Assembly (NCBI GenBank): GCA_900319925.1
Contig: ONQE01000009.1
Span: 1,807-65,806, forward strand
DNA: 64,000 nucleotides
Origin: an uncultured Bacteroidales bacterium
Lineage (GTDB): Bacteria > Bacteroidota > Bacteroidia > Bacteroidales > WCHB1-69
Direction of reading: 5' to 3'
Positions 6,326 to 62,814 of this stretch are shown one piece after another (position 1 is the first letter of the stretch; every line of letters starts with the position of its first letter). Made by a program: the position numbers and the translations under genes. The notes beneath the pieces are model-generated. The model searched no databases. It was given only the letters and a program-made list of their open reading frames with translations, and was not told the origin of the DNA.

Positions 6326-6346
6326 TTAACTCTTAACTCTTAACTC
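6326..6346. repeat. Heptamer tandem array TTAACTC x3
   Basis: Three exact copies lie between convergent genes. The TAA stop of the S41 peptidase (6340-6342, minus strand) lies inside the array. Confidence 0.85.
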
Positions 6347-7932
6347 TTCCCCAGCACCTCTTTCGCCTTCAAAATCACCTTATCCGTCTTGTTGATGACC
6401 GGATAGAAGGCCTCGTCGTCGTAAAGGTTGCGGCCGATGAGCGCCTTGAGCCAGACCTTCAGCTCCTTGGAGGAATTGGCGGTCATTTTCGAGACTTTCT
6501 TGTTGTTTTTCTCATAATATCGGACGAGTTGCTGCAGCATCTCGTCGGTGATCGTCATGCCTGCAACGTAAGATTTGGCGTCCGGGAACTGTTTTTTCAG
6601 GGCGGATTTGTGGTCGTTGGCGTAGTGGAAGGCGAACTGGATGAGCGCGGAGGAGTTGGCGATGTCATAGTAGGCATCCATATCCTCGCCGCGGTCGATG
6701 GGTACGAAATAGTCGGGCATGATGCCGCCGCCGCCATAGACGGGGCGTCCCTTCAGCGTGTGATAGACCTTTGAGGAGTCGAGGTGGATGCTGTCGGCGC
6801 TCTCCATCTCGCCGTTGAGCAGCCGGTTGTAGAGGTCTTCGTAGTAGGCGTCGGTGCCGTGGGCGTATTCGCGCTGGATGCAGCGGCCGCTGGGCGTGTG
6901 GTAGCGCGAGGTTGTCAGCCGGATGGACGACTGGTCGGAGAGGTCGAACTGCCGTTGTACCAGTCCTTTGCCGAACGAGCGGCGTCCCACGATGATGCCG
7001 CGGTCGTTGTCCTGCACAGCGCCCGCGACAATCTCGCTGGCCGAGGCGCTGAAGTCGTCGATCAGGATGACCACCTTGCCCTCCTCGAAGTCGCCGCGGC
7101 GAGAGGCGTAGATCACCTCCGGGCGCACTTTGGAACCCTCGATGGAGACGATTTCGCGGTTCTTGGGCAGGAACTCGTCGCACACGCTGACGGCCGCGTC
7201 GAGGAAACCGCCGGTGTTGGAGCGCAGATCGACGATCAGGGAGGTCATGCCCTGCTGCTTGAGCTTCAGGATGGCGTCGTTGAACTCCTTGGCCGTGGTG
7301 CTGCCGAACTCGTTGAGCTTGATGTAGCCGGTGTTGGCGTCCATCATATAGGCCACATCCACGGTGTAGGTCGGAATCACGCCGCGCGTGATCTCGTAGG
7401 TGTACTTGTCCTTGAACCCCGGACGCAGGATGCCGACCTTCACCTTTGTGCCCTTGTTGCCGCGCAACAGCTTGAAGGCCTGCTCGTTCTTAATGCCGAT
7501 GATGGACTTCCCATCCACCTCGATCATACGGTCGCCGGCCATCAGCCCGGCTTTCTCGGAGGGGCCTCCGGAGATGACCGACACCACCATCAGCGTGTCG
7601 TTCATAATGTTGAACTGGATGCCGATGCCCTCGAACGAGCCCTCCAAAGCCTCCATCGCCGCCTTGTTGTCCTCGGCGGTGGAGTAGGTGGAGTGCGGAT
7701 CCAATCCCTGCAGCATCGCGTTGATAGCCAACCCGTAAATCGAGTCCACATTGACGGAATCCACGTAGTACTTGTCGATGTATCCCATCACCTCGCTCAT
7801 CTTCTTGAGCTGGTCGTTGCCGCGCTTGCTCAACCGGTTCGGGTTGATGCGCAAGGCGAGGGAGAATCCGGCCAGGAAGGCGACCAGAATCCATAAAAAC
7901 ACGAGGCATCCGTTACGTCTGTTTTCGTTCAT
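6340..7932 (-). CDS. S41 family C-terminal processing (tail-specific) peptidase with PDZ domain
   Basis: Contains SASASEIVAGAVQDNDRGIIVGRRSFGKGLVQ (S41 catalytic Ser/Lys region), a PDZ-like segment GGPSEKAGLMAGDRMIEVDG and an N-terminal membrane anchor. Confidence 0.9.
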   Translation of the reverse strand: MNENRRNGCLVFLWILVAFLAGFSLALRINPNRLSKRGNDQLKKMSEVMGYIDKYYVDSVNVDSIYGLAINAMLQGLDPHSTYSTAEDNKAAMEALEGSFEGIGIQFNIMNDTLMVVSVISGGPSEKAGLMAGDRMIEVDGKSIIGIKNEQAFKLLRGNKGTKVKVGILRPGFKDKYTYEITRGVIPTYTVDVAYMMDANTGYIKLNEFGSTTAKEFNDAILKLKQQGMTSLIVDLRSNTGGFLDAAVSVCDEFLPKNREIVSIEGSKVRPEVIYASRRGDFEEGKVVILIDDFSASASEIVAGAVQDNDRGIIVGRRSFGKGLVQRQFDLSDQSSIRLTTSRYHTPSGRCIQREYAHGTDAYYEDLYNRLLNGEMESADSIHLDSSKVYHTLKGRPVYGGGGIMPDYFVPIDRGEDMDAYYDIANSSALIQFAFHYANDHKSALKKQFPDAKSYVAGMTITDEMLQQLVRYYEKNNKKVSKMTANSSKELKVWLKALIGRNLYDDEAFYPVINKTDKVILKAKEVLGKS

Positions 7933-7992
7933 CTTGACTTTGACTGTTGACTTAGAGGGTTGGTGACTGCAGGGGGCAGGGTGGGGGAGAGG

Positions 7993-10137
7993 CTATTCCA
8001 CGATGGTGAGCTCCTGCATCAGGTTCTGGGCGTTGGCCATCTTGTCGATGATGAAGAGCAGGTAGCGCATATCCATGCAGATGGTACGCTGCACCTGGTT
8101 CTCGAAGGAGATGTCGCCGCTCATGGCTTCCCAGTTGCCGTCGAAGGCCAGACCGATGAGGTTGCCGTTGGCATCGATGACCGGGCTGCCGGAGTTGCCG
8201 CCCGTGATGTCGTTGGTGGTGATGAAGTTCACGATCAGGTCGCCGTTCTTGTCGGCGTAGCGGCCGTAGTCGTGGTTCTCCCACAGCTTGATGAGCTCTT
8301 TCGGCACGTCGAACTCCCAGTCGCCGGGTTTGTACTTGGCCATCACACCGTCGAGGGTGGTGACGTAGCTGTAGGTCACGGCGTCGCGCGGCTCGCAGTC
8401 CTGCACGCTGCCGTAGGTGAGGCGCATCGTGAAGTTGGCGTCGGGATAGAAGTTGCGGTCTTGCTGCATCTCCATCAGCCCCTGCATATAGAGGCGTTCG
8501 GCGCGCTTGTCGTTCACGGTCTCGGCCTGCTCACTCAAATCCCAGTAGGTTTCCAAGATGTTGTACATCAGCGCGAAGATAGGATCTTTGGCTAAGGATT
8601 TGGGGTTGTCCAACCAGGCGTTCACCTTGTTCTCGTCCACGAAGATGGACTTGGCGAAGGCGTTATCGACAAAGGCGGTGAAGTCGCCGTTCGTCTTGTC
8701 GCCCACTTTCTTGAGGATGGACGGCAGTTGGGCGGGGTTCACATCCTTGTAGTAGAGGTTCAGCAGCGCGATGGTGACGTCGCGGTCGAGGGCTTTGTTG
8801 TAGTCTTTGAAGAAATCCTTCACGGAAGCCTTCATATTCTGGGCCATCTTCTTGATCTGCTCCGGGGTGGCGGCCTTCCGCTCGATGGCGGCGTTCAGCT
8901 GTCTGAACCGCAGGGCGAAGGTGACGGCCTCGCCGCCGCGCCAGCCGGCTTCGCGGTTGTAGATCAAGGCTTTGGTGTAGAGGTTCTGGTGGTTCCAGTA
9001 TTTGTCATACTCTTCGAAGATGCCGTCGTATTTGGCTTTGCGGCTCTTGTCGGCGTTCATCCATTTCCGGAAATCCTGTTCTTGGGCCAGCCGCTTCTCA
9101 TAGACCTTGTTCTGCTGCAGCTGCTTCACCTGGCCGATGTAGTATTTCCAGTAGTTGCTGACGCTGGCTTGTTTGGAGGCGTATTGGATGAAGACGGCGG
9201 GGTCGGCGTCCATGTGCTTGCGGTACTGCTCCAGCTTGGTGGTGCGGCAGGCGACGATGGCGGGGCCTTCCAGATCGATGACGTTCTTCACGGAACCGGA
9301 GGAGGAGTAGCGGTCGGTACTGCCGGGATAGCCGAGAATCATCGTGTAGTCGCCGGGTTGCACGCCTTTCAGGGAGACCGGCAGGTAGTGTTTCGACTTC
9401 ATCGGGACGTTGTCTTTGCTATAGGGGGCGGGGGAGCCGTCGGGGGCGGTATAGACGCGGAAGATGCAGAAGTCGCCCTTGTGGCGCGGCCAGGTCCAGT
9501 TGTCGGTGTCGGCGCCGTATTTGCCGATGCCCCACGGCGGGCAGGCCACGAGGCGCACGTCCTTGTACTCGTCATAGACGAACAGGATGTACTGGTTGCC
9601 GTGGTAGAAGGGCACAATCTCGACGCGCACGTCGCGTTTCCCCTTCTTCTCGATGCTCAGCTTCTTGCCGTTCTCCGCGATTTTCGCTTCACGGTCTTTC
9701 TCCGACATGTTGTCGGTCACGCCTTCCAGCACGGCTTTCGTCACATCCTCGATATAGGTGAGGAAGAGGACGGAGAGACCCTCGTTGGGGAGCTCCTGGT
9801 CTTTGCTGTAAGCCCAGAAGCCGTCCTGCAGGTAGTCGTGCTCCACGGAGGCGTGGGCCTGCACGTAGGAGAGGCCGCAGTGGTGGTTGGTGAGCAGCAG
9901 GCCTTCCGGGGAGATGAGCTCGCCGGTGCAGCCGCCACCGAACTGCACGATGGCGTCCTTGAGGCTGGGCTGGTTGAAACTGAAGATCTGCTCAGCCGTC
10001 AGTTTGCAGCCAAGTCGCTGCATATCAGCCAGATTCTGACCGTTGATGGAATAGGGCAGCCACATGCCCTCGTCGGCGCGGGCGCACAGGAAAAGCATCA
10101 TCAGCGCGATGCACAAGAGGTTGGTTTTCTTTGTCAT
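7993..10137 (-). CDS. S46 family dipeptidyl-peptidase (DPP7/DPP11 family), paralog 1
   Basis: Signal peptide followed by DEGMWLP, an His region TNHHCG, and catalytic GGNSGSPV near the C-terminus. Confidence 0.9.
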   Translation of the reverse strand: MTKKTNLLCIALMMLFLCARADEGMWLPYSINGQNLADMQRLGCKLTAEQIFSFNQPSLKDAIVQFGGGCTGELISPEGLLLTNHHCGLSYVQAHASVEHDYLQDGFWAYSKDQELPNEGLSVLFLTYIEDVTKAVLEGVTDNMSEKDREAKIAENGKKLSIEKKGKRDVRVEIVPFYHGNQYILFVYDEYKDVRLVACPPWGIGKYGADTDNWTWPRHKGDFCIFRVYTAPDGSPAPYSKDNVPMKSKHYLPVSLKGVQPGDYTMILGYPGSTDRYSSSGSVKNVIDLEGPAIVACRTTKLEQYRKHMDADPAVFIQYASKQASVSNYWKYYIGQVKQLQQNKVYEKRLAQEQDFRKWMNADKSRKAKYDGIFEEYDKYWNHQNLYTKALIYNREAGWRGGEAVTFALRFRQLNAAIERKAATPEQIKKMAQNMKASVKDFFKDYNKALDRDVTIALLNLYYKDVNPAQLPSILKKVGDKTNGDFTAFVDNAFAKSIFVDENKVNAWLDNPKSLAKDPIFALMYNILETYWDLSEQAETVNDKRAERLYMQGLMEMQQDRNFYPDANFTMRLTYGSVQDCEPRDAVTYSYVTTLDGVMAKYKPGDWEFDVPKELIKLWENHDYGRYADKNGDLIVNFITTNDITGGNSGSPVIDANGNLIGLAFDGNWEAMSGDISFENQVQRTICMDMRYLLFIIDKMANAQNLMQELTIVE

Positions 10138-10159
10138 AAGGCTCGTAATATTGAAGGCG

Positions 10160-11496: not shown

Positions 11497-11531
11497 CAAC
11501 TACTAACTGCTAACTGCTAACTGCTAACTAA
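11497..11531. repeat. Heptamer tandem array TAACTGC x5 (minus strand reads GCAGTTA)
   Basis: Sequence is caactac taactgc taactgc taactgc taactaa. It begins 5 nt downstream of the nqrE stop, in the nqrE-nqrF junction. Confidence 0.9.
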
Positions 11532-11535
11532 CGAA

Positions 11536-12138
11536 TCACATCCCGAGGAACGCCATAAACCCCATGCCCAGCAGTCCGGTGATGATGTAGGCGATGCCGT
11601 TGCCCTGCAGTTTGGGCGGGATTTTCGCGTATTTGAGGCGTTCGCGGATGGCGGCGAAGGCGGTGATGGCCAACAGCCAGCCGATGCCGGAGCCGAGCGC
11701 GTAGGCCAGACTGTGCGCCACGGTGGGGAAGTGGCGCTCCTGCATGAAGAGTGAGCCGCCGAGGATGGCGCAGTTCACGGCAATCAACGGCAGGAAGATG
11801 CCCAACGTCATATACAGCGCGGGCAGATACCGCTCGAAGACCATCTCCAGCAGCTGCACGATGCCCGCAATCACCGCGATGAAGATGATCAGCGACAGAA
11901 ACGAGAGGTCCGTGCCGGCAAAGCTTGCGTTCAGCCACGTCAACGCCCCTTCGCGGAGCAGGTATTTGTCGATCAAGTAGTTGACGGGCACGGTGACCGT
12001 CAGCACGAAGCAGACGGCCAGTCCCAACCCGAAGGCGGTCTTCACGTTCTTGGAGACGGCCAGATAGGAGCACATGCCCAAGAAGTAGGCGAAGACCATG
12101 TTGTCGATGAAGATGGAGCGGATGAAGATGTCGAACAT
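11536..12138 (-). CDS. nqrE: Na+-translocating NADH:quinone oxidoreductase subunit E
   Basis: 200-aa polytopic membrane protein with conserved NqrE/RnfA-like segments (FLGMCSYLAVS, LPLIAVNCAILGG). Confidence 0.9.
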   Translation of the reverse strand: MFDIFIRSIFIDNMVFAYFLGMCSYLAVSKNVKTAFGLGLAVCFVLTVTVPVNYLIDKYLLREGALTWLNASFAGTDLSFLSLIIFIAVIAGIVQLLEMVFERYLPALYMTLGIFLPLIAVNCAILGGSLFMQERHFPTVAHSLAYALGSGIGWLLAITAFAAIRERLKYAKIPPKLQGNGIAYIITGLLGMGFMAFLGM

Positions 12139-12141
12139 TAA

Positions 12142-12270
12142 GGTTTAAGGTTTAAGGTTTAAGGTTTAAGGTTTAAGGGTTAAGGTTTATGGTTTATGGT
12201 TTATGGTTTATGGTTTATGGTTTAGGGTTTAAGGGTTAAGGTTGGGGGGTACTAACTGCTAACTGCTAAC
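12142..12270. repeat. Composite heptamer arrays: GGTTTAA/GGGTTAA/GGTTTAT/GGTTTAG x15 (12142-12246), G-rich spacer, TAACTGC x2.6 (12253-12270)
   Basis: Units counted directly. The array starts 3 nt upstream of the nqrE ATG. The methyltransferase stop (TAG, 12259-12261) lies inside the TAACTGC part. Confidence 0.95.
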
Positions 12271-13071
12271 CGAATTCCGTTCCCAGAAGACCCCGTCGGC
12301 GTATCCCTGGATGGTGGAGTGGGTGGCGGCGAGGAGGAGGCGTTTGGCGGTCCAGAGGCAGTATTCGCGGTTGACTTCGACGCAGCAGAAGCGGCGGTCG
12401 AGTTTCTTGGCGACGACGGCGGCGGTGCCGCTGCCGGAGAAGGGGTCGAGGATGCGGTCGCCGGGGTTGGAGGAGGCGAGGATGAGCTTGGCGTAGAGTT
12501 TCTCGGGCTTCTGCGTGGGGTGGTCGGTGTTCTCGGGCATCGACCAGAAGGGCACGCTGATGTCGTCCCAGAAGTTGGAGGGGTGGGTGAGCCGGAACTT
12601 GCCGTCGGCGGTGTCGTCCCAGTCTTTGGGCTGACCGTCCACGCGATACGGGGCCAGCACCTTGCGTTTCATCTTGACGGCTTCCAGGTTGAAGGTGTAG
12701 TGTTTCGGGTCTTTCACGGCGAACCAGATGTCCTCCATGCTGTTCTTCCAGTTGAACTTCGCCCCGCGGCCCTTCTCGCGCTGCCAGGTGATGCGGTTGA
12801 GGATGGTAAGCCGCTCTTCGATAACCCGTTGCATAGAGGAGGAGCATTTCCAGTCGCCGCACATATAGAGCGAGCCCGTCGGCTTCAGCTTGTCGCACAC
12901 CTTTCCGAACCAGCTGCGCAGGAATTCCTCGTAATCGTCGGATTGCATGGAAGAGAATTTCCGTCCGTGGAAGTCTTTGTCGAGGTTGTAGGGCGGGTCG
13001 AGGAGGATGAGGTCGAAGAATCCGTCTGGGATGAGGTCGAGGCATTCGAGCAGGTCGCCGTTGACGAGCAT
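12259..13071 (-). CDS. Beta-class DNA methyltransferase (DPPY motif, probably N6-adenine), orphan
   Basis: Motif IV LLDPPYN precedes motif I DPFSGSGTAAV (beta permutation), and a DHPTQKPEKL motif is present. I chose the start at MLVNGDLLECL. The ORF stays open up to 13452, but the extra residues translate the 32-bp repeats and the promoter region; ATG 13365 is an alternative start. Confidence 0.85.
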   Translation of the reverse strand: MLVNGDLLECLDLIPDGFFDLILLDPPYNLDKDFHGRKFSSMQSDDYEEFLRSWFGKVCDKLKPTGSLYMCGDWKCSSSMQRVIEERLTILNRITWQREKGRGAKFNWKNSMEDIWFAVKDPKHYTFNLEAVKMKRKVLAPYRVDGQPKDWDDTADGKFRLTHPSNFWDDISVPFWSMPENTDHPTQKPEKLYAKLILASSNPGDRILDPFSGSGTAAVVAKKLDRRFCCVEVNREYCLWTAKRLLLAATHSTIQGYADGVFWERNSVSS

Positions 13072-13180
13072 ATCGTCGCGGAGGCCGGAGCGCAGGTCGT
13101 CCGGCGTGCTGACGAGCGGTTCCAGCGCGGGGACTTCCCCGGCGGTGACCGTCAGCGTGCGGTTGCGCGGGGCCCGTCCT

Positions 13181-13304
13181 CCACACTGCGGCTCCGCCTT
13201 GTCCGTTTCGCCCCACACTGCGGCTTCGCTTTGTCCGTTTGGCCCCACACTGCGGCTTCGCCTTGTCCGTTTGGCCCCACACTGCGGCTTCGCCTTGTGT
13301 GGGG
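13181..13304. repeat. 32-bp tandem repeat x3.9 (ccacactgcggcttcgccttgtccgtttggcc)
   Basis: Copies lie at 13181, 13213, 13245 and 13277 (truncated) with no spacers. The last copy closes into CCCCACAC-N14-GTGTGGGG. Confidence 0.9.
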
Positions 13305-13399
13305 TTATTAGCGCTTCGCGCGTCTTGCCCCTCCGGGGCTGCTCAAGGAATGTATTCGTTGTCATTCGCTGCCTCTTTCTCTCATTCTTTTTGGAATTG

Positions 13400-13407
13400 C
13401 AAAGGTA
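13400..13407 (-). promoter_or_regulatory. -7 box TAccTTTG upstream of the methyltransferase
   Basis: The plus strand reads caaaggta. It is the only TAnnTTTG match between the repeat field and the methyltransferase gene. Confidence 0.5.
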
Positions 13408-13756
13408 CATTTTTTTTAGACGTTCGCGCATAATCTGAAATAACAATCGCACCTCCCTGAGACGCTCACCCCGCCAGCACGGGCTGCCCCGTCCCTACTC
13501 GCCTCGGAGAGGCGACACGCACGCAGTGCAGGTAACACCACACAAGCGCAGCGCAGTGTGGTGCTGGTAGCGCAGTGTGGTGTCGCAGCGTAGTGTGGTG
13601 TCGTGCCGCAGCGCAGTATGGTGCTGGTGGTATGCAGTGTGGCGTCGTAGCCCTGTGCTGGGGGAGTGACTCTGTGATGATCGGTGAGCGTGTATCTCAT
13701 CTCAGTGTCTCGTCATGCGTACCAGCACCACGCTGCACACGAGACAGCACACCACG

Positions 13757-13924
13757 GGCAGCACACGGCGCACCCTCACCGGCAGCACACTGCGCGGCTC
13801 TGCCGGCATCGCACTGTGTGGCTCTGTCGGCATCGCACTGTGTGGCTCCGTCGGCATCACCCGGCGCATCTCCACCGGCATCGCACTACGTACCACCACC
13901 AGCACCACACTGCGCGGCTACGCC
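13757..13924. repeat. 24-bp tandem array x7 (consensus near GGCATCACACGGCGCNNCNCCACC)
   Basis: Units are in register at 13757, 13781, 13805, 13829, 13853, 13877 and 13901. Confidence 0.85.
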
Positions 13925-14074
13925 GCTAGTATGGTGTTACCTGCGCCTGACGGCGCGTCGCATCTCTCCGAGATGCTCACCCCGCCAGCACGGGCTGCCC
14001 CGTCCCAACTCGCCTCGGAGAGGCGACACGCACGCAGTGCAGGTAGCACCATACCAGCGCAGCGCAGTGTGGTG
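13903..14074. repeat. Long imperfect palindrome at the unit A/B junction (unoccupied version of the RAYT-flanking arms)
   Basis: Paired segments are caccacactgcgc/gcgcagtgtggtg, ggtgYtacctgc/gcaggtaRcacc, gtcgc/gcgac and ctctccgag/ctcggagag, around a 41-nt centre. Confidence 0.8.
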
Positions 14075-14226
14075 ACGTAGCGCGCAGTGTGGTGCTGGTA
14101 GCGCGCAGTGGTGCGTCGTAGCCCTGTGCCGGGGAGTGACTCTGTGATGATCGGTGAGCGTGTATCTCACCTCAGTGTCTCGTCATGCGTACCAGCACCA
14201 CGCTGCACACGAGACAGCACACCACG

Positions 14227-14466
14227 GGCAGCACACGGTGTACCACCGCCGGCATCACACGGCGCGGCTCTGTCGGCGCCACACGGCGTGCCACCACCGG
14301 CGCCACACGGCGTGCCACCTTCAGCGCCACACGGCGTGCCACCGTCAGCATCACACGGCGCATCTCCTCCGGCATCACACGGCGCACCACCATCGGCATC
14401 ACACGGCGTGCCACCACCGGCATCACACGGCGCATCTCCACCAGCACCACACTGCGCGGCTACGCC
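14227..14466. repeat. 24-bp tandem array x10 (same family as 13757-13924)
   Basis: Units are in register every 24 nt from 14227. Copy number differs from unit A (10 versus 7). Confidence 0.85.
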
Positions 14467-15164
14467 GCTGGTATGGTGTTACCTGCGCCTGACGGCGCGT
14501 CGCATCTCTCCGAGATGTTCCGCTCAGTCCGTGAGGAAGTACTCCTCTTTGATTTTGACTCCGTTCTCCGTGAGGAACTTTCGATATTCCTCCTCAAACG
14601 TCACACTATGATGATGCTCCTTCTGTCTGGCGATATACCGCACCACCGTGGCTTTGTCGCGCAAGCTTTTCGAAAACCCAGCATATTCTTTGGTCCAGCC
14701 ACTAAAAAGCGGGAAATGGGGGTTCGCCTTGAGCCACTTGCTTGTGGAGACCTTGAGTTCCTGAACGAATTTGGACATGGCCAAGGTTGCCGGCAGGGAC
14801 ACGAAAAGGTGCACATGATCGGGCATGCCGCCAATGCGGTAAAGATGCCCTCCCTTGTTCTTAGTAAAACCAAGTATGTAGGAGTAGAGCTCTCGTTCGT
14901 GTTCCTCCACGATGGCGGGGACGCTGCGGTGCGTGCGAAGGACAATGTGGTAATAAGTCTGTGTGTAACTCATGATTTTGTTTACAGTTTTGTATAATTT
15001 TGTTTTAACATGCTAATAACGGTAAAATGCTCGGATTATTGTGTTTGTCACATTTCTCTGAGACGCTCACCCTGCCAGCACGGGCTGCCCCGTCCCTACT
15101 CGCCTCGGAGAGGCGATACGCACGCAGTGCAGGTAACACCATACCAGCGCAGCGCAGTGTGGTG
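14445..15164 (-). mobile_element. RAYT/IS200-like Y1 transposase cassette flanked by inverted REP-like arms
   Basis: The left arm (14445-14517) and right arm (15051-15164) are the two halves of the palindrome seen intact at 13903-14074. A 15-nt junction segment is present on both sides (catctctccgagatg at 14503-14517; catttctctgagacg at 15051-15065). The interior (14518-15050) has visibly lower GC than the flanks. Confidence 0.7.
14524..14973 (-). CDS. IS200/IS605-family Y1 (HUH) transposase-like protein, REP-associated tyrosine transposase (RAYT) type
   Basis: 149 aa with HUH motif PDHVHLF and a Tyr motif in VVRYIARQKEHH. The overall pattern (YHIVLRT...GGMPDHVHLFVS...STSKWL) is that of the single-domain Y1 transposase family. 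No tnpB partner is present. Confidence 0.8.
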   Translation of the reverse strand: MSYTQTYYHIVLRTHRSVPAIVEEHERELYSYILGFTKNKGGHLYRIGGMPDHVHLFVSLPATLAMSKFVQELKVSTSKWLKANPHFPLFSGWTKEYAGFSKSLRDKATVVRYIARQKEHHHSVTFEEEYRKFLTENGVKIKEEYFLTD

Positions 15165-15420
15165 CCGCAGTGTGGTGCCGCAGTGTGGTGCCGTAGCGCA
15201 GTATGGTGCTGGTGGTATGCAGTGTGGCGTCATAGCCCTGTGCTGGAGGAGACGATGAGGAGCTACTCGCCTCGGAGAGGCGACACGCACGCAGTGCAGG
15301 TAGCACCATACAAGCGAAGCGCAGTGTGGTGACGTAGTGCGCAGTGTGGTGACGAAGCGCAGTGTGGTGACGAAGCGCAGTGTGGTGACGAAGCGCAGTG
15401 TGGTGACGTGGTGTCGCAGC
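15058..15420. repeat. Two further partial composite units (head modules plus GCGCAGTGTGGTG repeats), ending in an 18-bp tandem gcgcagtgtggtgacgaa x5
   Basis: The head module is repeated at 15058-15140 and, truncated, at 15263-15310. The 18-mer array at 15319-15410 ends 15 nt from the nqrD stop codon. Confidence 0.85.
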
Positions 15421-15424
15421 GCAG

Positions 15425-16000: not shown

Positions 16001-16009
16001 GGTATTAAT

Positions 16010-16044
16010 GGTGATTAGTGATTGGTGATTGGTGAGGAGTGAAG
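16010..16044. repeat. Heptamer array GGTGATT/AGTGATT/GGTGAGG x5
   Basis: Spans the nqrD start / nqrC stop junction. The nqrC stop (TAA, 16015-16017) and its last codons (SPITNH) are encoded by the array. Confidence 0.8.
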
Positions 16045-16626
16045 GGAGGATTGCATCATCTCATCCACCCCTTTGGAGGTCAGTGTGGCTCCGCTGATGG
16101 CGTCCACGCGGTTCTCCTCGGCGATTTCGCTGGCGGTTCCCGATTTCAACACTCTCACAGATACGAAGTTGCCGTCTTTATCGTAAAGTTTCTTGCCTTC
16201 GAAGGCTTTCAGGAACGCCGCTTCGGTGATCTTCGCGCCCAAGCCGGGGGTCTCCGATTTGTGGTCGAAGCTGACGCCCTTGAGGGTCTGCCCGTCCTCC
16301 GACACCACCGCGTACCCCCAGATCGGTCCCCACAGCCCTTTGCCGTCGAGACGGATTGCCGTGCCCTTCGAGCCGTCGGCGCAGATGACGCGGTACTGTC
16401 TTCCGTCTTCGGTCAGCGGCTCGGCAAGGTTCGAGAACGCTTCCACGGCCTTCGAGCGGTCGATGTCGTGGCCCGCCGCCCGCAGGATCTGCTGGCACTT
16501 TTCGGCCTGCTTGTTCTGGTCGCGCCGCGGCTTCAACCCCGTGGAGACCAACGTGAGCACCACCGCAATCACCACGACCAACGCCGTGATGTACAGGAAG
16601 ATGTAGGTGTTGCTGAAGTTTTTCAT
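16015..16626 (-). CDS. nqrC: Na+-translocating NADH:quinone oxidoreductase subunit C (FMN-binding)
   Basis: N-terminal TM helix, a GLWGPIWGY segment, and the flavinylation motif AISGATLTS. Confidence 0.87.
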   Translation of the reverse strand: MKNFSNTYIFLYITALVVVIAVVLTLVSTGLKPRRDQNKQAEKCQQILRAAGHDIDRSKAVEAFSNLAEPLTEDGRQYRVICADGSKGTAIRLDGKGLWGPIWGYAVVSEDGQTLKGVSFDHKSETPGLGAKITEAAFLKAFEGKKLYDKDGNFVSVRVLKSGTASEIAEENRVDAISGATLTSKGVDEMMQSSLHSSPITNH

Positions 16627-16628
16627 TT

Positions 16629-16747
16629 AGTGATTTGTGATTTGTGATTTGTGATTTGTGATTAGTGATTTGTGATTAGTGATTAGTGATTAGTGATTAG
16701 TGATTTGTGATTAGTGATTTGTGATTAGTGATTAGTGATTTGTGATC
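16629..16747. repeat. Heptamer tandem array GTGATTT/GTGATTA x17
   Basis: 119 nt is exactly 17 units. It begins 2 nt upstream of the nqrC ATG. Confidence 0.95.
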
Positions 16748-16756
16748 AGAGCCCAA

Positions 16757-16819
16757 AGTCATAAGTCCCACGTCATAAGTCATAAGTCATACGTCATAAG
16801 TCACACGTCCCACGTCTCC
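16757..16819. repeat. Heptamer tandem array AGTCATA/CGTCATA/AGTCCCA-type x9
   Basis: 63 nt is 9 units. The nqrB stop (TGA, 16794-16796) and its last 8 codons lie inside the array. Confidence 0.9.
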
Positions 16820-17899: not shown

Positions 17900-19714
17900 T
17901 TATCGCTTATCTGGCTCAAAAGAAGTGATCCGAATCACCCACGCATTCTCCAGCTCGTTAAGTTTTTTCGTGTCGATGTCGGAAAAGTCGATAGTAAGGG
18001 TTCCTCTCTTGTCCTGCTTCCATTTCAGCATGGTGTAGGCTTTCCCTTTTTCGCCGTGGTAGCTCATCTCATAATCCGTGCCTAACAGGATCATCCCATC
18101 TTTCGGGTTTAGCTTTGGCATATTCTTGATGACTAGCGGCTTGCGCGGATCAGGACGCTCGAACTCGATAATGTAGAGGTTGTTGTAGAGGTTCTCGCTC
18201 TTGGTGGTGAAGCAGCGTGTGGTGGTTTGCCATGTGATTTCGCTAATCCAGTTTGAGGATACGGGCTCGAAATCCCCTCCGTCAACACTCACGAGGAGCG
18301 AGGCCGTGGCCTCGAGGTCTTTCTCATGATACCAGACATCTAATTGATAATTCTCCCCTTTGGCGAGGTGCACCTCATACCAAGGCGTGTTCTCCGCCCA
18401 GTTACTGTTGTAATAGAGAATAGTGTCCCCATTGCCTGCAACGGTCATCTCGTCGTTGGCAACAGCCTTGAAACGGTATGTACCATCCTTCGGCGCCTTG
18501 AAAGATCCTTTCCAATGAATGTCGAAGTTGTCCACTGGCATTTCTCTGAGTGGGGCATTGCGCACCCAGTCGAAATGTAGAGGGCCTGAATATCCAGGTA
18601 AAGCGAAGGTCGTTGTACGTTGGCACGGAATCTCATACGGCCTTGTCCCATATATCGCCTCGCCGTTGATTTTCAGCCATTTGCCGAGTGCTCTCAGCCG
18701 TTCCTGCTGGATGAGCGGGATGGTGCCGTCGGCGTAGGGACCCACGTTGAGGGTCATGCCGCCGCCGTGCGCCACCAACTCCACAAAGTGCTGTATCAAC
18801 TCCTTGTCGGTCATGTAGTTGTCCAAATCCTCGTTGCGGTTCAACCCGAAGCTGCGTCCGAAGCCGCGGCACTCTGCCCACGGCACCTCGGTGTTGGCGA
18901 TGCCCGCGCTGTACTCGGGCGTCAGGAAGCCGTGCTTCGTGCCGTTGCCCCAACGGTTGTTCACGATGGCGTCCGCGCCCACGGTGTTGTAGTACCAGCT
19001 GATCAGTTCCTGCGAACGAAGCTGCTCCGCCGTGTTGTTCCAGTCGCCGTCGGAGAAGAGAAGGTCGGGCTTGTAACGGCCCACCAACTCCTTGAACTGC
19101 GGCACCATATAGTTATCAACATAGTCGCCGATCTCGTTGTCGGGATCCTGCATCCAGATGTGGCGCGGGTTGGTCCATTCTGGCAGCGAGTAGTAGAAGC
19201 CCATCCGCAGTCCGTGGTCGCGTACGCTGGTGGTCAACTCCTCCACGATGTTGCGCCTCGGACCGCTCATCACGCTGTTCCATTCAGGCTGGAATGGACT
19301 GTCCCACAGACAGTAGCCGTCATGATGTTTCGTGACCAACACCACGTATTTCGCGCCGGCATCCTTGAACATTTGCGCCCAATCGTCGGGATTCCAAAGC
19401 TCTGCGTGCCAGAATTTGGTGAGCTCCTTGTACTGGTCGAAGACGGGCTTGGTGGTGTCGGCGTAGTAGCTCATGATGCGCGTCCGCTCGGGCACTTTCT
19501 GCATCAGCCCGCGGTAGAACCATTCGCCGTAGCCCTCCTTGGAGGCGTAGGCAGGCACGGAGTAGAGTCCCCAGTGGATGAAGATGCCGAGTTTCGCGTC
19601 TTGGAACCACTGCGGGTAGCCGCGCTGGTTGAGGGATTCCCACGTGGGTTGAACTTGGGCCTGTGTCGTCAATCCGGCCAGTAGGATTATCAATAAGGTC
19701 GCTAATTTCTTCAT
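17900..19714 (-). CDS. GH29 alpha-L-fucosidase with a C-terminal PA14-like/carbohydrate-binding extension, secreted
   Basis: Signal peptide MKKLATLLIILLAGLTTQAQ, then the GH29 core (FGIFIHWGLYSVPAY, YVVLVTKHHDGYCLWDS, YYSLPEW) and a C-terminal PA14-like segment (GTYRFKAVANDEMTVAGNG). I chose the ATG at 19714, which overlaps the nqrA stop as ATGA. Confidence 0.85.
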   Translation of the reverse strand: MKKLATLLIILLAGLTTQAQVQPTWESLNQRGYPQWFQDAKLGIFIHWGLYSVPAYASKEGYGEWFYRGLMQKVPERTRIMSYYADTTKPVFDQYKELTKFWHAELWNPDDWAQMFKDAGAKYVVLVTKHHDGYCLWDSPFQPEWNSVMSGPRRNIVEELTTSVRDHGLRMGFYYSLPEWTNPRHIWMQDPDNEIGDYVDNYMVPQFKELVGRYKPDLLFSDGDWNNTAEQLRSQELISWYYNTVGADAIVNNRWGNGTKHGFLTPEYSAGIANTEVPWAECRGFGRSFGLNRNEDLDNYMTDKELIQHFVELVAHGGGMTLNVGPYADGTIPLIQQERLRALGKWLKINGEAIYGTRPYEIPCQRTTTFALPGYSGPLHFDWVRNAPLREMPVDNFDIHWKGSFKAPKDGTYRFKAVANDEMTVAGNGDTILYYNSNWAENTPWYEVHLAKGENYQLDVWYHEKDLEATASLLVSVDGGDFEPVSSNWISEITWQTTTRCFTTKSENLYNNLYIIEFERPDPRKPLVIKNMPKLNPKDGMILLGTDYEMSYHGEKGKAYTMLKWKQDKRGTLTIDFSDIDTKKLNELENAWVIRITSFEPDKR

Positions 19715-21066
19715 TCTTGATTCTGCATTTTTAATTCCAAGAGGGCGTCCTCGACGATTTGTTGCCACTCCTTTTTCGAGGGGCAGACGAGTTCGCAGAG
19801 GGCGAAGTCCTCGCTATCGACTTCGTAGATGCCGAGGGCTTCCATCTGTTCGATGTCCTTGATCTCGCAGGCCTTGAGCAGCTGCAGAGGCATCAGGTCG
19901 AAGGGGAAGACCTTGTCATAGACGTCGGTCATCATGACGGCGCGGCGGCCGCCGTGGAGCGAGGTGTTGACATCGTAGGTGCGTTTCGGGGTGAGCCACG
20001 ACAGGAATGTGTGCGAGAGGCTCCATTTCTTCAGCCCCGGCAGTAACCATCCGAGGATCTCGCGTTGGCCGCCCTCCGCAATGACCGTGATCTGCCGGTC
20101 GTGGAAAGCGAGGGTGGGGGAGTCCCCCAACTTGCTGCCGCTCAGTATGCTGCCGCTGATGGCGCGGACGTTCTCCTGCGTGAGGCTGTCGGCGAACAGC
20201 GCGGACAGATCCGCACCGTAAATCGTGTCGAAGTAGCCGGTGTTCTTGACGGCGGGCCCCGTCAGCGCAGCGGTTTTCCCGAACTGCAGCATCTGTTCCG
20301 CAAAGAAACGACCGATGCGGGCCACCTCTTGCGGGTCGAGGAACCAGACCGTTTCGCCTTTGTCGATGGGGTCTATTCGGTGGATTTGAGTGCCGACGTT
20401 TCCGGCGGGGTGCGGACCGCTGAAGTAGTGCTTCTGCACATTCTCGACAGCTTCAAAGAGTTGGTTGTCAGCCCTTTCTCGCATACAGATATGTACAGTC
20501 GCGTCACCGGCGGCCAGTTGCAGCATCTTGATTCCCTGCCGGAAATCCTCCTCCTTGCCACGCATCAGCACATTGAAGTCCGGGGCGAGTGGGTTGCTGT
20601 CGAAGCAGGAGACGAATACGGCTTTGGGTTTCGCATCGGGACTGGGGATGGTGGCGTAGGGGCGTTGTCGCAGAGAAGGCCACAGACCATTCTGTAGCAA
20701 CAACTTGCGGACAGCCTCTCCGTCGGTCGGTGGCTCGAAATGGATGGTTCTTTCCGTGGGCGCGTCCACGTCGCGGGCAATCGTGATCTCCTCGATGATC
20801 CGCTTCTCGCCGCGCACAATCTCCCGCACCGTGCCTGCAATGGGAGAGACAATGACGACACGTTCATCCGCTTTGTCGTGGAACAACGGGCTGCCGATTT
20901 CCACGTGGTCGCCAGCCTGCACGAGCAATTTGGGTTTCATCCACCGGAAGTCGGATGGCCGGATGTGGAAGGTTTTGGGCAAAACGAAGTCTAACGGCGT
21001 GTCGGGCGCGGCGCCGTCCAACTTCAGATCCAGTCCTTTGTTGATTTTGTAGGTCATCGTGTTCAT
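19711..21066 (-). CDS. nqrA: Na+-translocating NADH:quinone oxidoreductase subunit A
   Basis: Has the typical N-terminus IKKGLDL-type (YKINKGLDLKLDGAA) and the length and architecture of NqrA. Confidence 0.9.
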   Translation of the reverse strand: MNTMTYKINKGLDLKLDGAAPDTPLDFVLPKTFHIRPSDFRWMKPKLLVQAGDHVEIGSPLFHDKADERVVIVSPIAGTVREIVRGEKRIIEEITIARDVDAPTERTIHFEPPTDGEAVRKLLLQNGLWPSLRQRPYATIPSPDAKPKAVFVSCFDSNPLAPDFNVLMRGKEEDFRQGIKMLQLAAGDATVHICMRERADNQLFEAVENVQKHYFSGPHPAGNVGTQIHRIDPIDKGETVWFLDPQEVARIGRFFAEQMLQFGKTAALTGPAVKNTGYFDTIYGADLSALFADSLTQENVRAISGSILSGSKLGDSPTLAFHDRQITVIAEGGQREILGWLLPGLKKWSLSHTFLSWLTPKRTYDVNTSLHGGRRAVMMTDVYDKVFPFDLMPLQLLKACEIKDIEQMEALGIYEVDSEDFALCELVCPSKKEWQQIVEDALLELKMQNQE

Positions 21067-22698: not shown

Positions 22699-25092
<2,394 letters not shown>

Positions 25093-27524: not shown

Positions 27525-27542
27525 CGGAAACGGATTCCTCCA

Positions 27543-27584
27543 AAAACAAGAAGAGACGCACGGCCGTGCGTCTCTTCTTGTTTT
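27543..27584. terminator. Bidirectional rho-independent terminator between convergent GH97 copy 2 and S46 paralog 2
   Basis: Perfect 21+21 nt inverted repeat aaaacaagaagagacgcacgg/ccgtgcgtctcttcttgtttt, with A/T runs on both sides. Confidence 0.8.
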
Positions 27585-27608
27585 GATAATTTATCCGATG
27601 GAAGGGGA

Positions 27609-29768: not shown

Positions 29769-29782
29769 AGTACTTTCTGTTT

Positions 29783-31051: not shown

Positions 31052-33636
<2,585 letters not shown>

Positions 33637-33649
<13 letters not shown>

Positions 33650-33671: not shown

Positions 33672-33680
33672 GACAAACTC

Positions 33681-44993: not shown

Positions 44994-45041
44994 TGAGTAG
45001 TGAATGGTGAGTAGTGAATAGTGAGTAGTGAATAGTGAGTT
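44993..45041. repeat. Heptamer array GTGAGTA/GTGAATR x7 (also a 14-nt period)
   Basis: Starts on the last nt of the porU TAG stop; 49 nt is 7 units. Confidence 0.9.
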
Positions 45042-45206
45042 TTTAGTATGTAGTTTGTTGTTTATCAATGCGTTATTGGTGCGATATCACATTTGAAAAA
45101 AAATAATTTCGTTTGGATATAATAAAAGTGACAAAAGTCCGTTGACCCATAGTTTTTTTGGAATAAATAATAGTATTAACAAGTAATAAAAAACGTAAAA
45201 CTACCA

Positions 45207-52045: not shown

Positions 52046-52606
52046 ATGGTTAAAATCGGTCTTACAGGCGGTATTGGAACTGGAAAGACTTACCTGTCCA
52101 CCCACTTCCTCGATATGGGCATACCTGTCTATTATGCCGATGACGAAGCGAAGAAGTTGTATCGCAGTCCTTCCTTTTTGGCGGATATGCGCGAAGCTTT
52201 CCCGGATGGACGTCTTTGGGAGGAAGACGGTTCCTTGAATATGCAACAGCTTTCACAATCTTTTGAAGACGAGGCGTTTCTGCAACGGCTGAGCCATTTC
52301 GTGCACCCGTATGTGATGCGCGACTTTGAGCGATGGGCTGCCGAACAGGACGCGCTAGCCGTCATGATGGAGTCGGCGATACTGTTCGAGTATGATTTGG
52401 TCTCCTATTTCGATAAGATTATCGTTGCCGATGCCCCGGAGCCGCTGAGGATCAAACGCATACGGGAACGTAACCCGCACCTCACAGTAGCGGACATCCG
52501 CCAGCGCATGGCGCGCCAGATTCCCCAGGAGGAGAAGTGCGCGAGGGCGGATTTGGTGGTCTGCACGGGAGAAACCTATCGGGAAGGGTTAAGGTTTAAG
52601 GTTTAA
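52046..52606 (+). CDS. coaE: Dephospho-CoA kinase
   Basis: MVKIGLTGGIGTGKT P-loop at the N-terminus. The true ATG is at 52046, inside the longer ORF-track entry. The last codons and the stop are encoded by the GGTTTAA array. Confidence 0.9.
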   Translation: MVKIGLTGGIGTGKTYLSTHFLDMGIPVYYADDEAKKLYRSPSFLADMREAFPDGRLWEEDGSLNMQQLSQSFEDEAFLQRLSHFVHPYVMRDFERWAAEQDALAVMMESAILFEYDLVSYFDKIIVADAPEPLRIKRIRERNPHLTVADIRQRMARQIPQEEKCARADLVVCTGETYREGLRFKV

Positions 52607-52627
52607 GGTTTAAGGGTTAAGGTGTAG
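52586..52627. repeat. Heptamer array GGGTTAA/GGTTTAA x6
   Basis: Both convergent genes end in it (coaE TAA at 52604-52606; thpR TAA at 52603-52605 on the minus strand), overlapping by 4 nt. Confidence 0.9.
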
Positions 52628-53169
52628 AGGGTTTTGTATTCTGGGCCGTCCTTATGGAGGAAACTCTGATAGAGATTCAATTTGTCAATCATTAAATCTT
52701 GCGCGAAAGGGGACTTTTGCGCCGTTTCTATATGTTCCCAGAATTTGTGTTTGTCGTGCAGGTTCTTGATGCGCCCCAAGGTGATATGCGGCACAAAATT
52801 ACCGTAGTTGGGCTCGAAACCTATCGCCTGTAGCTTCGGCTCCAAATCTTCAAACAATTGCTTGAAGGGTTCGAAAGATTCGAATCCCACCCAGATGGTT
52901 TCGGGGTGATAATGGCTTCCGAATACACCAATCTTGTTGATTGTTAATGAAAACAGGGAATGATGGGCGCATGTTTCTGAAAGTATCTTTCGGATTTCCG
53001 GCACTTGTTGCGGCGGGGTCGCGCCCAAAAACCGCAGCGTCAGATGTCGCACGTCATCCTTCACCCACACAATGTCGTCGTGGCGCAGGCGAAAACGCAA
53101 GTCGGCGGAGATCTTTTGGATTTCCGCCGACAAGCTGATTATGGGTGTGGCGACGAACAACCGTTTCAT
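52603..53169 (-). CDS. thpR: RNA 2',3'-cyclic phosphodiesterase (2H family, ThpR/LigT)
   Basis: Two HxTx motifs (HLTLRF and HITLGR). The ATG overlaps the dpp4 stop as ATGA. Confidence 0.85.
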   Translation of the reverse strand: MKRLFVATPIISLSAEIQKISADLRFRLRHDDIVWVKDDVRHLTLRFLGATPPQQVPEIRKILSETCAHHSLFSLTINKIGVFGSHYHPETIWVGFESFEPFKQLFEDLEPKLQAIGFEPNYGNFVPHITLGRIKNLHDKHKFWEHIETAQKSPFAQDLMIDKLNLYQSFLHKDGPEYKTLYTLTLKP

Positions 53170-61355: not shown

Positions 61356-61386
61356 AATGTATCTTTTTAATGGTGGTTGTTTATTT

Positions 61387-61466
61387 AGTTAGAAGTTAGT
61401 AGTTAGCAGTTAGTAGTTCACGGTTGAGCGGTAACTGCTAACTACTAACTGCTAACTGCTAACTTC
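61387..61466. repeat. Inverted pair of heptamer arrays (AGTTAGN x4-5 | 13-nt centre | TAACTRC x5) forming a hairpin between purB and upp
   Basis: The arms can pair over 18 or more bp in shifted registers. The purB stop (TAG, 61459-61461) lies in the right arm. There is no clear U-tract after the hairpin. Confidence 0.85.
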
Positions 61467-62754
61467 CAAAGACCCTTTCGAAGATGGCGGGCACCTGCTT
61501 CAGATAGTATTCCAACGTGAAGCACTGGTCGAGTTCTTCGGGGGTGAAGTGGCTCATGACGGTCTCGTTTTGGGAGAGGAGCTCCTTGTAGTCCTGTCCT
61601 TCGAACCAGGCCTTCATAGCGATAGGCTGCACGAGGTCGTAGGCGCTTTCGCGGGAGAAGCCCTTGTTGATGAGGGCGGTCATGACGCGCTGCGCGAAGA
61701 TGACCTTGTGGGTTAAGTAGATGTTTTTCAGCATGTTCTCTGGAAAAACGACGAGGTTTTCGAGGATGTTGCCGAAGCGGTTGAGCATATAGTCGAGCAG
61801 GATGGTGGCGTCGGGGAGCATGATGCGCTCGGCGGAGGAGTGGGAGATGTCGCGCTCGTGCCAGAGCGGGATGTTCTCGTAGGCGCTGACCATATAGCCG
61901 CGGAGGATTCTCGCGCAGCCGCACATATTCTCGCTGCCGATGGGGTTGCGCTTGTGGGGCATCGCGGAGGAGCCTTTCTGCCCTTTGCCGAAGGCCTCCT
62001 CGGCCTCGCGGAGCTCCGTGCGTTGCCAATGGCGCACCTCGATGGCCATCTGCTCCATGGTGGAGGCGATGAGCGCGAGGGTGCCCATGTAGTGGGCGTG
62101 GCGGTCGCGCTGCAGCACCTGCGTGGAGATGCGGGCGGAGTGGATGCCGAGCTGCTCGCAGACATAGTCCTGCACGAACGGCGGGGTGTTGGCGAAGTTG
62201 CCCACGGCACCGCTGATCTTGCCGCACTCCACATCGGCGGCGGCCATCTCGAAACGCTCGATGTTGCGGCGCATCTCCTCGAACCACAGCGCCCATTTCA
62301 GACCGAGGGCGGTGATGTCGGCGTGCACGCCGTGCGTGCGCCCGATGCAAGGCGTGTCCTTGAACTCGTAAGCGCGTTTCTTGAGAATCTCGATGAATCG
62401 CTGGAGATCCTTGCGGAGGATATTGTTGGCCTGCTTGAGGAGGTAGCCGTTGGCGGTATCCACCACATCGGTGGAGGTGAGCCCGTAGTGCACCCACTTT
62501 TTCTCGTCGCCGAGGCTCTCGCTCACGGCACGGGTGAAGGCCACGATGTCGTGGCGGGTTTCCTTCTCGATTTCGTATATGCGCTGCACGTCGAAGGTGG
62601 CCTTCGTGCGCAGTTTCTCAACGTCTTCAGCCGGAATCACGCCGAGTTGGCTCCACGCGGCGGCGGCTTCGATTTCCACTTTCAAATAGGCGCCGAATTT
62701 GTTTTCCTCAGTCCAGACGGCGCTCATCTCCGGACGCGAATAACGGGGTATCAT
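61459..62754 (-). CDS. purB: Adenylosuccinate lyase
   Basis: Contains [11 protein letters not shown] and the signature [12 protein letters not shown] chose the start at 62754, downstream of the -7 box. Confidence 0.95.
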
Positions 62755-62775
62755 AATCGTTAAAAATTTTCGCGG

Positions 62776-62783
62776 CAAAGATA
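62776..62783 (-). promoter_or_regulatory. -7 box TAtcTTTG upstream of purB
   Basis: The plus strand reads caaagata, 22 nt upstream of the ATG at 62754. Confidence 0.6.
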
Positions 62784-62786
62784 CGA

Positions 62787-62814
62787 AATAATGTAGAATG
62801 TAGAATGTGGAATG
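62787..62814. repeat. Heptamer array AATAATG/TAGAATG/TAGAATG/TGGAATG x4
   Basis: Lies directly upstream of the purB -7 box. Confidence 0.75.

Follow-up and report, generated by a model that had tools for sequence, protein, structure and literature searches.

The DNA analysed here is a 64 kb stretch of contig ONQE01000009.1 from an uncultured Bacteroidales bacterium, called the window throughout, in which tandem arrays of 7-nt units (heptamers) lie at the boundaries of genes. The identities of the genes concerned were confirmed by Pfam and comprise the S41 peptidase, NqrB, NqrC, NqrD, NqrE, NqrF, an N6/N4 DNA methyltransferase, LspA and a split PurD, together with PnuC, PorU, PorV, CoaE, a LigT/ThpR phosphoesterase, Upp and PurB. 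The PurB of the window is 99% identical to that of a rumen Bacteroidales metagenome-assembled genome (MAG), and its approximately 40 best relatives all come from uncultured Bacteroidales of the rumen or the hindgut. In this study we report that the arrays change between strains in steps of 7 nt, that they are dense in a restricted lineage, that they have taken over compact gene junctions and the ends of proteins, and that their siting and orientation follow the genes. Arrays were detected in the window with Tandem Repeats Finder and with a separate period scan. The related set consisted of the window and 160 related loci, whose genes were called with a self-trained codon model and in which 132 period-7 arrays were catalogued; labels such as L001, L064 or L167 denote comparison loci or contigs.

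All the heptamer arrays listed in an earlier reading of the bare sequence (the original prediction) were recovered with essentially unchanged coordinates. Many of them belong to the nqr genes, on the minus strand. The first one, TAACTGC (4.6 copies, 11498–11529), reads GCAGTTA on the mRNA and occupies the spacer between nqrE and nqrF; the nqrE stop had rightly been placed just ahead of it, although the distance is 6 nt and not 5. Upstream of nqrE, GGTTTAA/GGTTTAT/GGGTTAA (15 copies, 12138–12243) reads TTAAACC on the mRNA, has no G on that strand and reaches the nqrE ATG at 12138, and it is followed by TAACTGC (2.7 copies, 12252–12270, minus strand), which appears as GCAGTTAG on the mRNA and gives the final codons and the TAG of the N6/N4 DNA methyltransferase. 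The array GGTGATT (3.9 copies, 16009–16035), which reads TCACCAA/TCACTAA on the mRNA, codes for the C-terminal tail of NqrC and its TAA and ends 10 nt from the nqrD ATG. The next one, GTGATTW (17.3 copies, 16625–16746), reads AATCACW on the mRNA, lacks G, is predicted to be unstructured and halts 3 nt short of the nqrC ATG. Next to it, a GTCATAA/GTCACAC-like array (7–8 copies, 16756–16816; TGACTTA/GACGTGG on the mRNA) codes for the NqrB tail (RGTCDL) and its TGA.

Outside the nqr genes, TTAACTC (3.3 copies, 6326–6348, minus strand; AAGAGTT on the sense strand of the S41 peptidase gene) holds the stop of this gene (6340–6342) in the convergent spacer that it shares with a DAHP synthase/chorismate mutase gene. 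The minus-strand array GTTTACT (4.7 copies, 29781–29814), CAGTAAA on the mRNA, holds the lspA stop 12 nt from the ATG of an S46 peptidase gene. On the plus strand, AGTTAGC (4.9 copies, 33638–33671) ends the purD 3' fragment, while TAACCCC/TAAACCW (9.4 copies, 33680–33746, minus strand) reads GGTTTAW/GGGGTTA on the pnuC sense strand and holds the pnuC stop. The plus-strand array GTGAGTA/GTGAATA (7.3 copies, 44990–45040) begins at the porU TAG, about 165 nt upstream of porV, and a weak AGTTTGT tract (3.7 copies, 45038–45063) adjoins its 3' side. A single GGTTTAA/GGGTTAA array (6–7 copies, 52584–52633) contains both stops of the convergent genes coaE (plus strand) and thpR/LigT (minus strand). 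Past purB lies an inverted pair on the minus strand (61386–61464), formed by AGTTAGN (4.7 copies, 61386–61418) and TAACTGC (4.7 copies, 61432–61464), the latter being GCAGTTA on the mRNA and giving purB its AGT TAG. One more array, TCACAAG (3.6 copies, 24952–24976, plus strand), absent from the original list, lies inside the coding sequence (CDS) of a GH97 glycoside hydrolase, in-frame and without stops (SSQVTNHKS), where about three units may have been inserted without loss of the frame.

The window holds at least eight unit families, a few of which recur at unlinked loci as had been claimed: within it, the AGTTAGC family occupies four different spacers and GGTTTAA three, and families also recur across the related loci. 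Higher-order patterns of 14 and 21 nt were reported by Tandem Repeats Finder, the arrays being mixtures of unit variants. The claim that ten CDSs have their stop codon within an array (S41 peptidase, nqrC, nqrB, the DNA methyltransferase, lspA, the purD 3' fragment, pnuC, coaE, thpR and purB) also stands, as do the porU TAG, which is part of the first unit of its array, and the terminal codons GTT AGC AGT TAG (methyltransferase), GTT AAC AGT TAG (purD) and GGA AGT TAG (purB). The description of the arrays as features of gene ends is only half of the picture, since most of them equally touch the start of the next gene and fill whole co-directional spacers, as the TTAAACC units at the nqrE ATG and the AATCACW units before nqrC do. 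The minus-strand array TAGAATG (3.6 copies, 62790–62814; CATTCTA on the mRNA strand, without G) had been assigned to a CDS end in error. The longest purB ORF (start at 62841) reads through an array in the region 62752–62841, and this ORF is a false N-terminal extension. According to the homologues and to a promoter box of the Bacteroidetes −7 type (TATCTTTG, 62783–62776), the true purB start is the ATG at 62754–62752, and the array lies just upstream of the promoter. An orthologue of this CATTCTA array is present in L001.

Neither the period nor the siting of the arrays can be attributed to chance. With one threshold, the scan of the window returned 13 tracts of period 7 and none of each of the periods 4–6 and 8–12, and no tract appeared in 100 shuffles of the whole window and 300 shuffles of its intergenic sequence. 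In the related set the 132 arrays of period 7 compare with at most 14 of any other period. In the window, 496 of 607 array bases fall outside called CDSs, while the intergenic share of the window is only 7.8%. A lineage-wide move to period 8 was considered and discarded: the hits in L020, L024 and L030–L034 all come from a single CTACTCCT array, orthologous among them, in the spacer downstream of purB. This period-8 array (CTACTCCT/TCACTCCT), also seen in L023, belongs to one sister lineage, and a TATCTTTG promoter box follows it closely.

Strain-level comparison showed that the arrays are variable in whole units. An exact-protein look-up with NqrD gave 10 contigs from independent assemblies with identical NqrD. 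Two of them, L167 and L170, reproduce base for base the 167-nt spacer between nqrB and nqrC of the window, whereas in the remaining ones every array differs by multiples of 7 nt. Among these contigs the nqrB–nqrC spacer ranges from 111 to 230 nt, the nqrC–nqrD spacer from 4 to 140 nt (with 2 to about 20 TCACCAA/TCACTAA units) and the spacer between the methyltransferase gene and nqrE from 44 to 197 nt. The array at 11498–11529 has three to five copies across strains, and the unit itself can change, given that L162 and L168 carry GTGATTT units between nqrE and nqrF where other contigs carry GCAGTTA. The arrays are thus hypervariable microsatellites. The same data dispose of the explanation that they are an assembly or sequencing artefact, for which the probable origin of the source in a metagenome assembly and the split of purD could be invoked. 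Because the identical spacer recurs in the independent assemblies L167 and L170, from different samples and studies, and orthologues of the arrays are found in dozens of MAGs, an artefact is effectively refuted and we attach practically no weight to it.

With respect to purD, the gene is represented by two overlapping ORFs in different frames (GARS_N/A, 32400–33434, and GARS_C, 33224–33649), the break lies near 33330–33375 and the linker is apparently shortened. The split reflects either a pseudogene or a mistake in the assembly.

The density of arrays depends on the lineage. It is 2.0 per 10 kb in the window and 1.1–2.3 per 10 kb in the closest species, falls to 0.2–0.6 per 10 kb in sister groups and is 0.03 per 10 kb in 1 Mb of other Bacteroidota; two Paludibacteraceae MAGs are likewise array-rich. 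Locus L064, from a Paludibacteraceae MAG, has ten heptamer arrays in 21 kb (regions 355–541, 2087–2689 and 4095–4120), with inverted pairs of TAATTCA and AATTATG repeated at several sites and about 120–540 nt apart, which could be a small mobile element with array termini. In a scan of species-representative genomes, exact (AGTTAGC)x3 was found in at least 120 stretches, and the matches listed span Cyanobacteria, Flavobacteriia, Saprospiraceae, Planctomycetota, Psychrobacter, Acidobacteriota, Chloroflexota and others. The 120 listed loci (0.88 Mb) contain 216 arrays of period 7 and at most 12 of any other period, with TAACTGA as the second commonest unit. Therefore, the preference for period 7 and part of the unit vocabulary are cross-phylum properties.

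Comparison of orthologous junctions revealed what the arrays have replaced. Relatives without arrays have compact junctions, some of them with an overlapping ATGA stop/start, while the array-bearing lineages have 40–230 nt of repeats at these places; array sequence took over the native stop and the last 1–12 codons of the upstream gene. The compact junction is likely the ancestral state. In the array-less relatives NqrB ends in ...EKRLSQPKTAAR and its TGA overlaps the nqrC ATG, and in the array lineages this tail has been swapped for array-encoded residues (RGTCDL* in the window) and 110–230 nt of repeats have been inserted. The NqrC tail is also array-encoded (SSLHSSPITNH*, with the variants SSIHSSQITNHH and SSIHNSQFTIHN), and the length of the protein varies from 203 to 220 amino acids among strains. 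At the junction of purB and upp, the window and three other species have GCAGTTA units starting from the last purB codon, a short loop and then TAACTNC units; three further species have GACTTGA units, a loop and TCAAGTC units; in six species a conventional GTAGAGACG...CGTCTCTAC hairpin stands there, after which TAAACCY units continue to the upp leader, and more distant relatives are repeat-free. PurB is constant in length and its last residue tracks the unit (GS*, GN* or GC* with arrays vs GK* or GE* without). The suggestion that slippage-prone tracts remodel C-termini is borne out by the strain-level differences in multiples of 7 nt and by these comparisons, in which native C-termini of NqrB, NqrC and PurB are replaced by array-encoded residues, in the case of PurB the last one.

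Siting among the spacers of the clade was not random, and so the refuting outcome named with the original prediction, in which arrays would be sited as by chance, did not occur. Arrays lie in transcribed spacers with a gene 3' end and shun divergent spacers, which hold promoters. They are present in 70 of 261 co-directional spacers, in 6 of 41 convergent ones and in 2 of 44 divergent ones, and the divergent spacers have the fewest although they are the longest. The dependence on spacer type has a Fisher p of 0.0016, which is approximate given that the loci are partly orthologous. Orientation is equally biased. On the sense strand, arrays adjacent to a stop alone have more G than C in 34 cases and more C than G in 5, and arrays adjacent to a start alone have more C than G in 32 cases, many of them without any G, and more G than C in 6. 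One and the same family is turned according to its context, since GGTTTAA lies past the pnuC and coaE stops and TTAAACC before nqrE, and GTGATTT lies past nqrE in some strains and AATCACW before nqrC. Replication strand was discarded as the cause: the GC skew is positive across the whole window, yet both array orientations occur on the plus strand, and therefore array orientation follows the genes and not the replichore.

The original prediction had proposed that the arrays might be all-frame stop fences or read-through insulators at operon junctions. As barriers to transcription or translation, terminators included, they would have in their favour that stops in each of the three sense frames are found in 35 of the 42 stop-proximal arrays and that inverted pairs give strong hairpins directly past stops. 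However, the arrays between nqrB, nqrC, nqrD, nqrE and nqrF separate genes for subunits of one enzyme. The start-proximal arrays are unstructured and carry all-frame stops at a near-random rate (23 of 40, vs 49% for random units of equal composition), so that all-frame stops are a property of the stop-overlapping subset, close to definitional, and not of the arrays as a class. Furthermore, the scan for hairpin-plus-T-tract terminators found none that overlaps an array, and terminator-like sequences were as numerous as in shuffles. A general barrier function is unlikely, and we give this explanation only a slight chance.

In regard to the hairpins, inverted pairs of the same family make up 19 of 95 adjacent array pairs. 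The pair between purB and upp is predicted to form on the mRNA a stem of approximately 30 bp with a minimum free energy (MFE) of −43.8 kcal/mol (z −9.3); it has no T-tract, which also speaks against a barrier, and the A-rich upp leader comes next. This hairpin stands where related species have an ordinary palindrome, and therefore a hairpin at this site seems maintained, whatever builds it; it may be regarded as a candidate element for 3'-end protection, processing or termination. The spacers between nqrB and nqrC and between the methyltransferase gene and nqrE are no more structured than their shuffles. A general pairing of G-rich arrays after stops with C-rich arrays before starts was rejected, since only the same-family inverted pairs can pair. 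The scan for sigma-70 promoters gave none that coincides with an array, and counts at chance level, with a model that is ill-suited to Bacteroidota promoters. The window gave no Rfam match at gathering thresholds and no transfer RNA or tmRNA. A recurrent G+C-rich palindrome, (T)GTAGAGACGC...GCGTCTCTAC(A), was noted after stops in several species of the clade, including downstream of purB in L002, L004, L006, L008, L009 and L012, and the window has AGAGACGCACGGCCGTGCGTCTCT at 27525–27608. This palindrome could represent another dispersed hairpin element, or else the terminator hairpin that the clade normally uses.

The start-proximal arrays must be considered in the light of how these bacteria initiate translation. 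It has been described that initiation in Bacteroidetes is tuned by low mRNA structure and by an A at −3, and that additional AUGs near the start are avoided (Baez et al., PMC6847099). The clade leaders without arrays match this signature of initiation independent of the Shine-Dalgarno sequence: they have no Shine-Dalgarno, G accounts for 13% of positions −20 to −1, A is found at −3 in 61% and positions −11 to −14 are A-rich. The median predicted MFE per nt is 0.000 kcal/mol for start-proximal arrays, −0.077 for other leaders and −0.16 for random genomic 40-mers. Being G-free, the start-proximal arrays offer no AUG, GUG or UUG, and in the bases left between array and ATG the starts abutted by arrays keep A at −3 in 57% and never have C there. 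By composition and predicted folding, the start-proximal arrays fit this signature of Shine-Dalgarno-independent initiation.

Given all the above, we consider it probable that the arrays are heptanucleotide microsatellites generated by slippage, which have proliferated in one uncultured rumen Bacteroidales lineage and have been filtered by selection on the mRNA. Arrays would originate and grow by replication slippage, which is proposed as the reason for the 7-nt steps and for the higher-order patterns, and would expand until selection halts them, with only the orientations compatible with the mRNA surviving. Next to a start codon the sense strand would have to contain little G, form no structure and lack AUG while retaining A at −3, which fits initiation in Bacteroidota, where Shine-Dalgarno pairing is not used. 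An array that invades a CDS would have to end translation at once; units carrying TAA, TAG or TGA would be found there because such an invasion may be tolerated only if translation ends immediately. Inverted pairs, in turn, would provide a hairpin after the stop, taking the place of the ordinary palindrome of related species. Read in this way, the stops supplied by arrays are a by-product of encroachment and no designed fence.

Several points weigh against this explanation. Slippage alone accounts neither for the recurrence of a small unit vocabulary at unlinked sites, nor for the presence of (AGTTAGC)x3 in so many phyla, nor for the period of 7 and its accumulation in only some lineages. The filter at the RNA level is one that we infer only from composition, orientation and modelled folding. 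In addition, the genes of the loci were called with a simple in-house caller and their start positions may be off, and the orthologues of an array in related species are not independent, so that binomial and Fisher p-values overstate the significance; these values are approximate, but the effect sizes are large. The gaps in explanation mentioned leave a sequence-specific binding protein in contention, with a dedicated generating process as the weaker alternative.

In the first case, the arrays would be platforms for a sequence-specific single-strand nucleic-acid-binding protein (of the cold-shock, S1 or RRM type, one per heptamer) and would define a genome-wide post-transcriptional regulon. 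The recurrence of a few families at unlinked loci and in many species, the distribution of the AGTTAGC unit across phyla and the importance of orientation relative to transcription all agree with it; a binder has been proposed for TAACTGA repeats (PMC4679880), and in a Nostoc preprint the deletion of heptamer repeats upstream of recO and recF is reported to affect the expression of these genes. It is harder to reconcile with 2 to about 20 copies at one site among strains with identical NqrD, with units that are swapped at orthologous sites between species and even between strains, and with the variety of families in 64 kb, for which either many binders or a very loose specificity would be required; no candidate binder was identified either. 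We regard this possibility as rather unlikely, though deserving of attention.

The second case is that of footprints of a templated 7-nt addition, similar to that of a telomerase or a reverse transcriptase, or of a tiny mobile element that copies units. The strict rule of period 7 and the occurrence of the same units at unlinked sites and in distant phyla are what such a process would leave. Nevertheless, no reverse transcriptase or comparable gene is near the arrays in the window, the arrays show neither terminal inverted repeats nor target duplications, unit variants are mixed in super-periods of 14 and 21 nt, and whole-unit changes inside fixed flanks are like those of ordinary microsatellites. 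The only transposase of the window is a RAYT (a transposase associated with repetitive extragenic palindromes, REP), whose REP repeats are unrelated to the heptamers. Templated addition, which had also been put forward at the outset, thus appears improbable.

The RAYT belongs to an insert of about 3.2 kb (12259–15424) that breaks the nqr operon between nqrD and nqrE and that contains the N6/N4 DNA methyltransferase gene (12259–13452, minus strand) and the RAYT-like IS200-type Y1 transposase gene (14524–14973, minus strand). The latter is flanked on both sides by REP-like clusters built on CACCACACTGCGC, with Tandem Repeats Finder periods of 13, 18, 24 and 72. In strain-level contigs the transposase is present or absent and the methyltransferase is usually present. 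A tie of the arrays to the RAYT/REP cluster or to the inserted methyltransferase was rejected: their sequences are unrelated, and all strains bear arrays whether or not they have the RAYT. The 5' part of the long methyltransferase ORF has a 32-nt unit repeated 3.7 times with 95% identity (13181–13298), and since 32 nt is not a whole number of codons, the gene probably starts downstream of this tract; the core of this repeat, CCGCAGTGTGGGG, resembles hairpins found upstream of nqrC in L091. Besides, a gene for a PA14-domain alpha-L-fucosidase (17900–19768) lies between nqrA (19711–21066) and nqrB on the same strand, and it does so in all strain-level contigs.

The original prediction found no class of known repeats to which the arrays could be assigned. 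This holds for several classes. CRISPR requires repeats of 24–48 nt with unique spacers, and the arrays are contiguous 7-mers; the terminators were discarded as indicated above; and REP sequences with their mosaic elements (BIME) are imperfect palindromes of about 20–40 nt, while the heptamer units are non-palindromic, stand head-to-tail and share no sequence with the CACCACACTGCGC repeats of the separate REP/RAYT cluster (13460–15420), even if both are abundant short intergenic repeats. It does not hold for published heptanucleotide repeats, which match the arrays even in the strand rule and the overlap with stops.

Among these, the short tandemly repeated repetitive (STRR) heptanucleotides of the cyanobacteria Calothrix and Anabaena, attributed to Mazel and co-workers (1990), are reportedly the oldest example. 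In the survey of long simple sequence repeats (LSSR) by Mrazek et al. (2007), as summarised in PMC4679880, no long repeat was commoner than the heptamers, and slippage of the polymerase was put forward as the origin. Like STRR and LSSR, the arrays studied here consist of a few heptamer families dispersed at many intergenic sites near ORF boundaries, with three or more head-to-tail units, an excess of period 7 and variation of copy number and sequence; unlike them, they are not from the phyla in which those were described. G-rich heptameric simple sequence repeats (SSRs) were reported by Rehm et al. (2015), GGGAATC in Xanthomonas and GGGGAYT in Nostoc PCC 7120, with the G-rich strand being non-coding upstream of ORFs and coding downstream of them, 0–50 bp from the stop or overlapping it, with inverted pairs and with length and sequence that vary at the same sites between close relatives (PMC4692102). 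The clade of the window keeps the same strand rule (34:5 after stops and 6:32 before starts), the inverted pairs and the variation at sites. It differs in the phylum, in the replacement of overlapping operon junctions and the encoding of C-terminal tails, and in having many A/T-rich families in place of one dominant unit capable of forming G-quadruplexes. In this regard, the minus strand at 33680–33710, directly past the pnuC stop, reads GGGTTATGGGTTAGGGGTTAGGGGTTAG and has four G-tracts, and by its sequence it could be a candidate G-quadruplex former; it is the sole such array of the window, the others having at most two G per unit and none reaching four tracts of three or more G.

Direct repeats of TAACTGA were described in marine Beggiatoaceae, in Cyanobacteria and in five Bacteroidetes including Paludibacter (MacGregor, 2015; PMC4679880). 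They are mostly intergenic, often directly upstream of starts without a Shine-Dalgarno sequence, and scattered in their phylogenetic distribution; some sets overlap the upstream stop, the forward repeats stopping all frames (PMC4679880). The commonest unit of the window, TAACTGC, is one base off TAACTGA, and there are at least eight families here with up to 17 copies, against one unit usually in 2–6 copies there. The arrays are not exact members of that group, since the units of the window are TAACTGC, TTAACTC and others, and the canonical AACTGAT occurs once in the clade loci. Finally, phase-variable contingency SSRs, such as the 7-bp hmw1A repeats and the tetranucleotide loci of Haemophilus, share with the arrays a hypermutable copy number through slippage, and repeats in 5' regions can reportedly tune expression (PMC8262952, PMC12721329). 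They are, however, few and located at surface or virulence genes, whereas the arrays occupy junctions of housekeeping operons (nqr, pur, upp) and would involve no ON/OFF frame switching. The novelty of the present case lies in its host lineage, in how many unit families there are and how dense the arrays are, in the clear replacement of overlapping operon junctions and protein tails, and in the fit to Shine-Dalgarno-independent initiation.

A more speculative proposal, to which we concede a small probability, is that the arrays serve as evolvable intercistronic 'landing pads' in place of the stop/start overlap, the hypervariable copy number tuning downstream translation or Rho loading and hence subunit ratios across the population, with the strict 7-nt period, common to unrelated phyla that partly share units such as AGTTAGC, perhaps set by some molecular ruler of replication or repair. 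Tracts free of G and of structure would suit ribosomes that ignore the Shine-Dalgarno sequence, and Rho would load on C-rich, G-poor RNA.

Heptanucleotide repeats have long been known from some bacterial genomes, and the clade is a dense and well-sampled case of them, with dozens of species-level MAGs, many strain-level contigs and the same junctions with and without arrays. It must be noted that gene prediction at arrays will yield C-termini encoded by repeats and spurious N-terminal extensions such as that of purB, and that short-read assemblies may break or collapse at arrays. The presence of such arrays in an essential respiratory operon, and in a host that initiates translation independently of Shine-Dalgarno pairing, makes the choice between neutral slippage and action on the mRNA a testable one.

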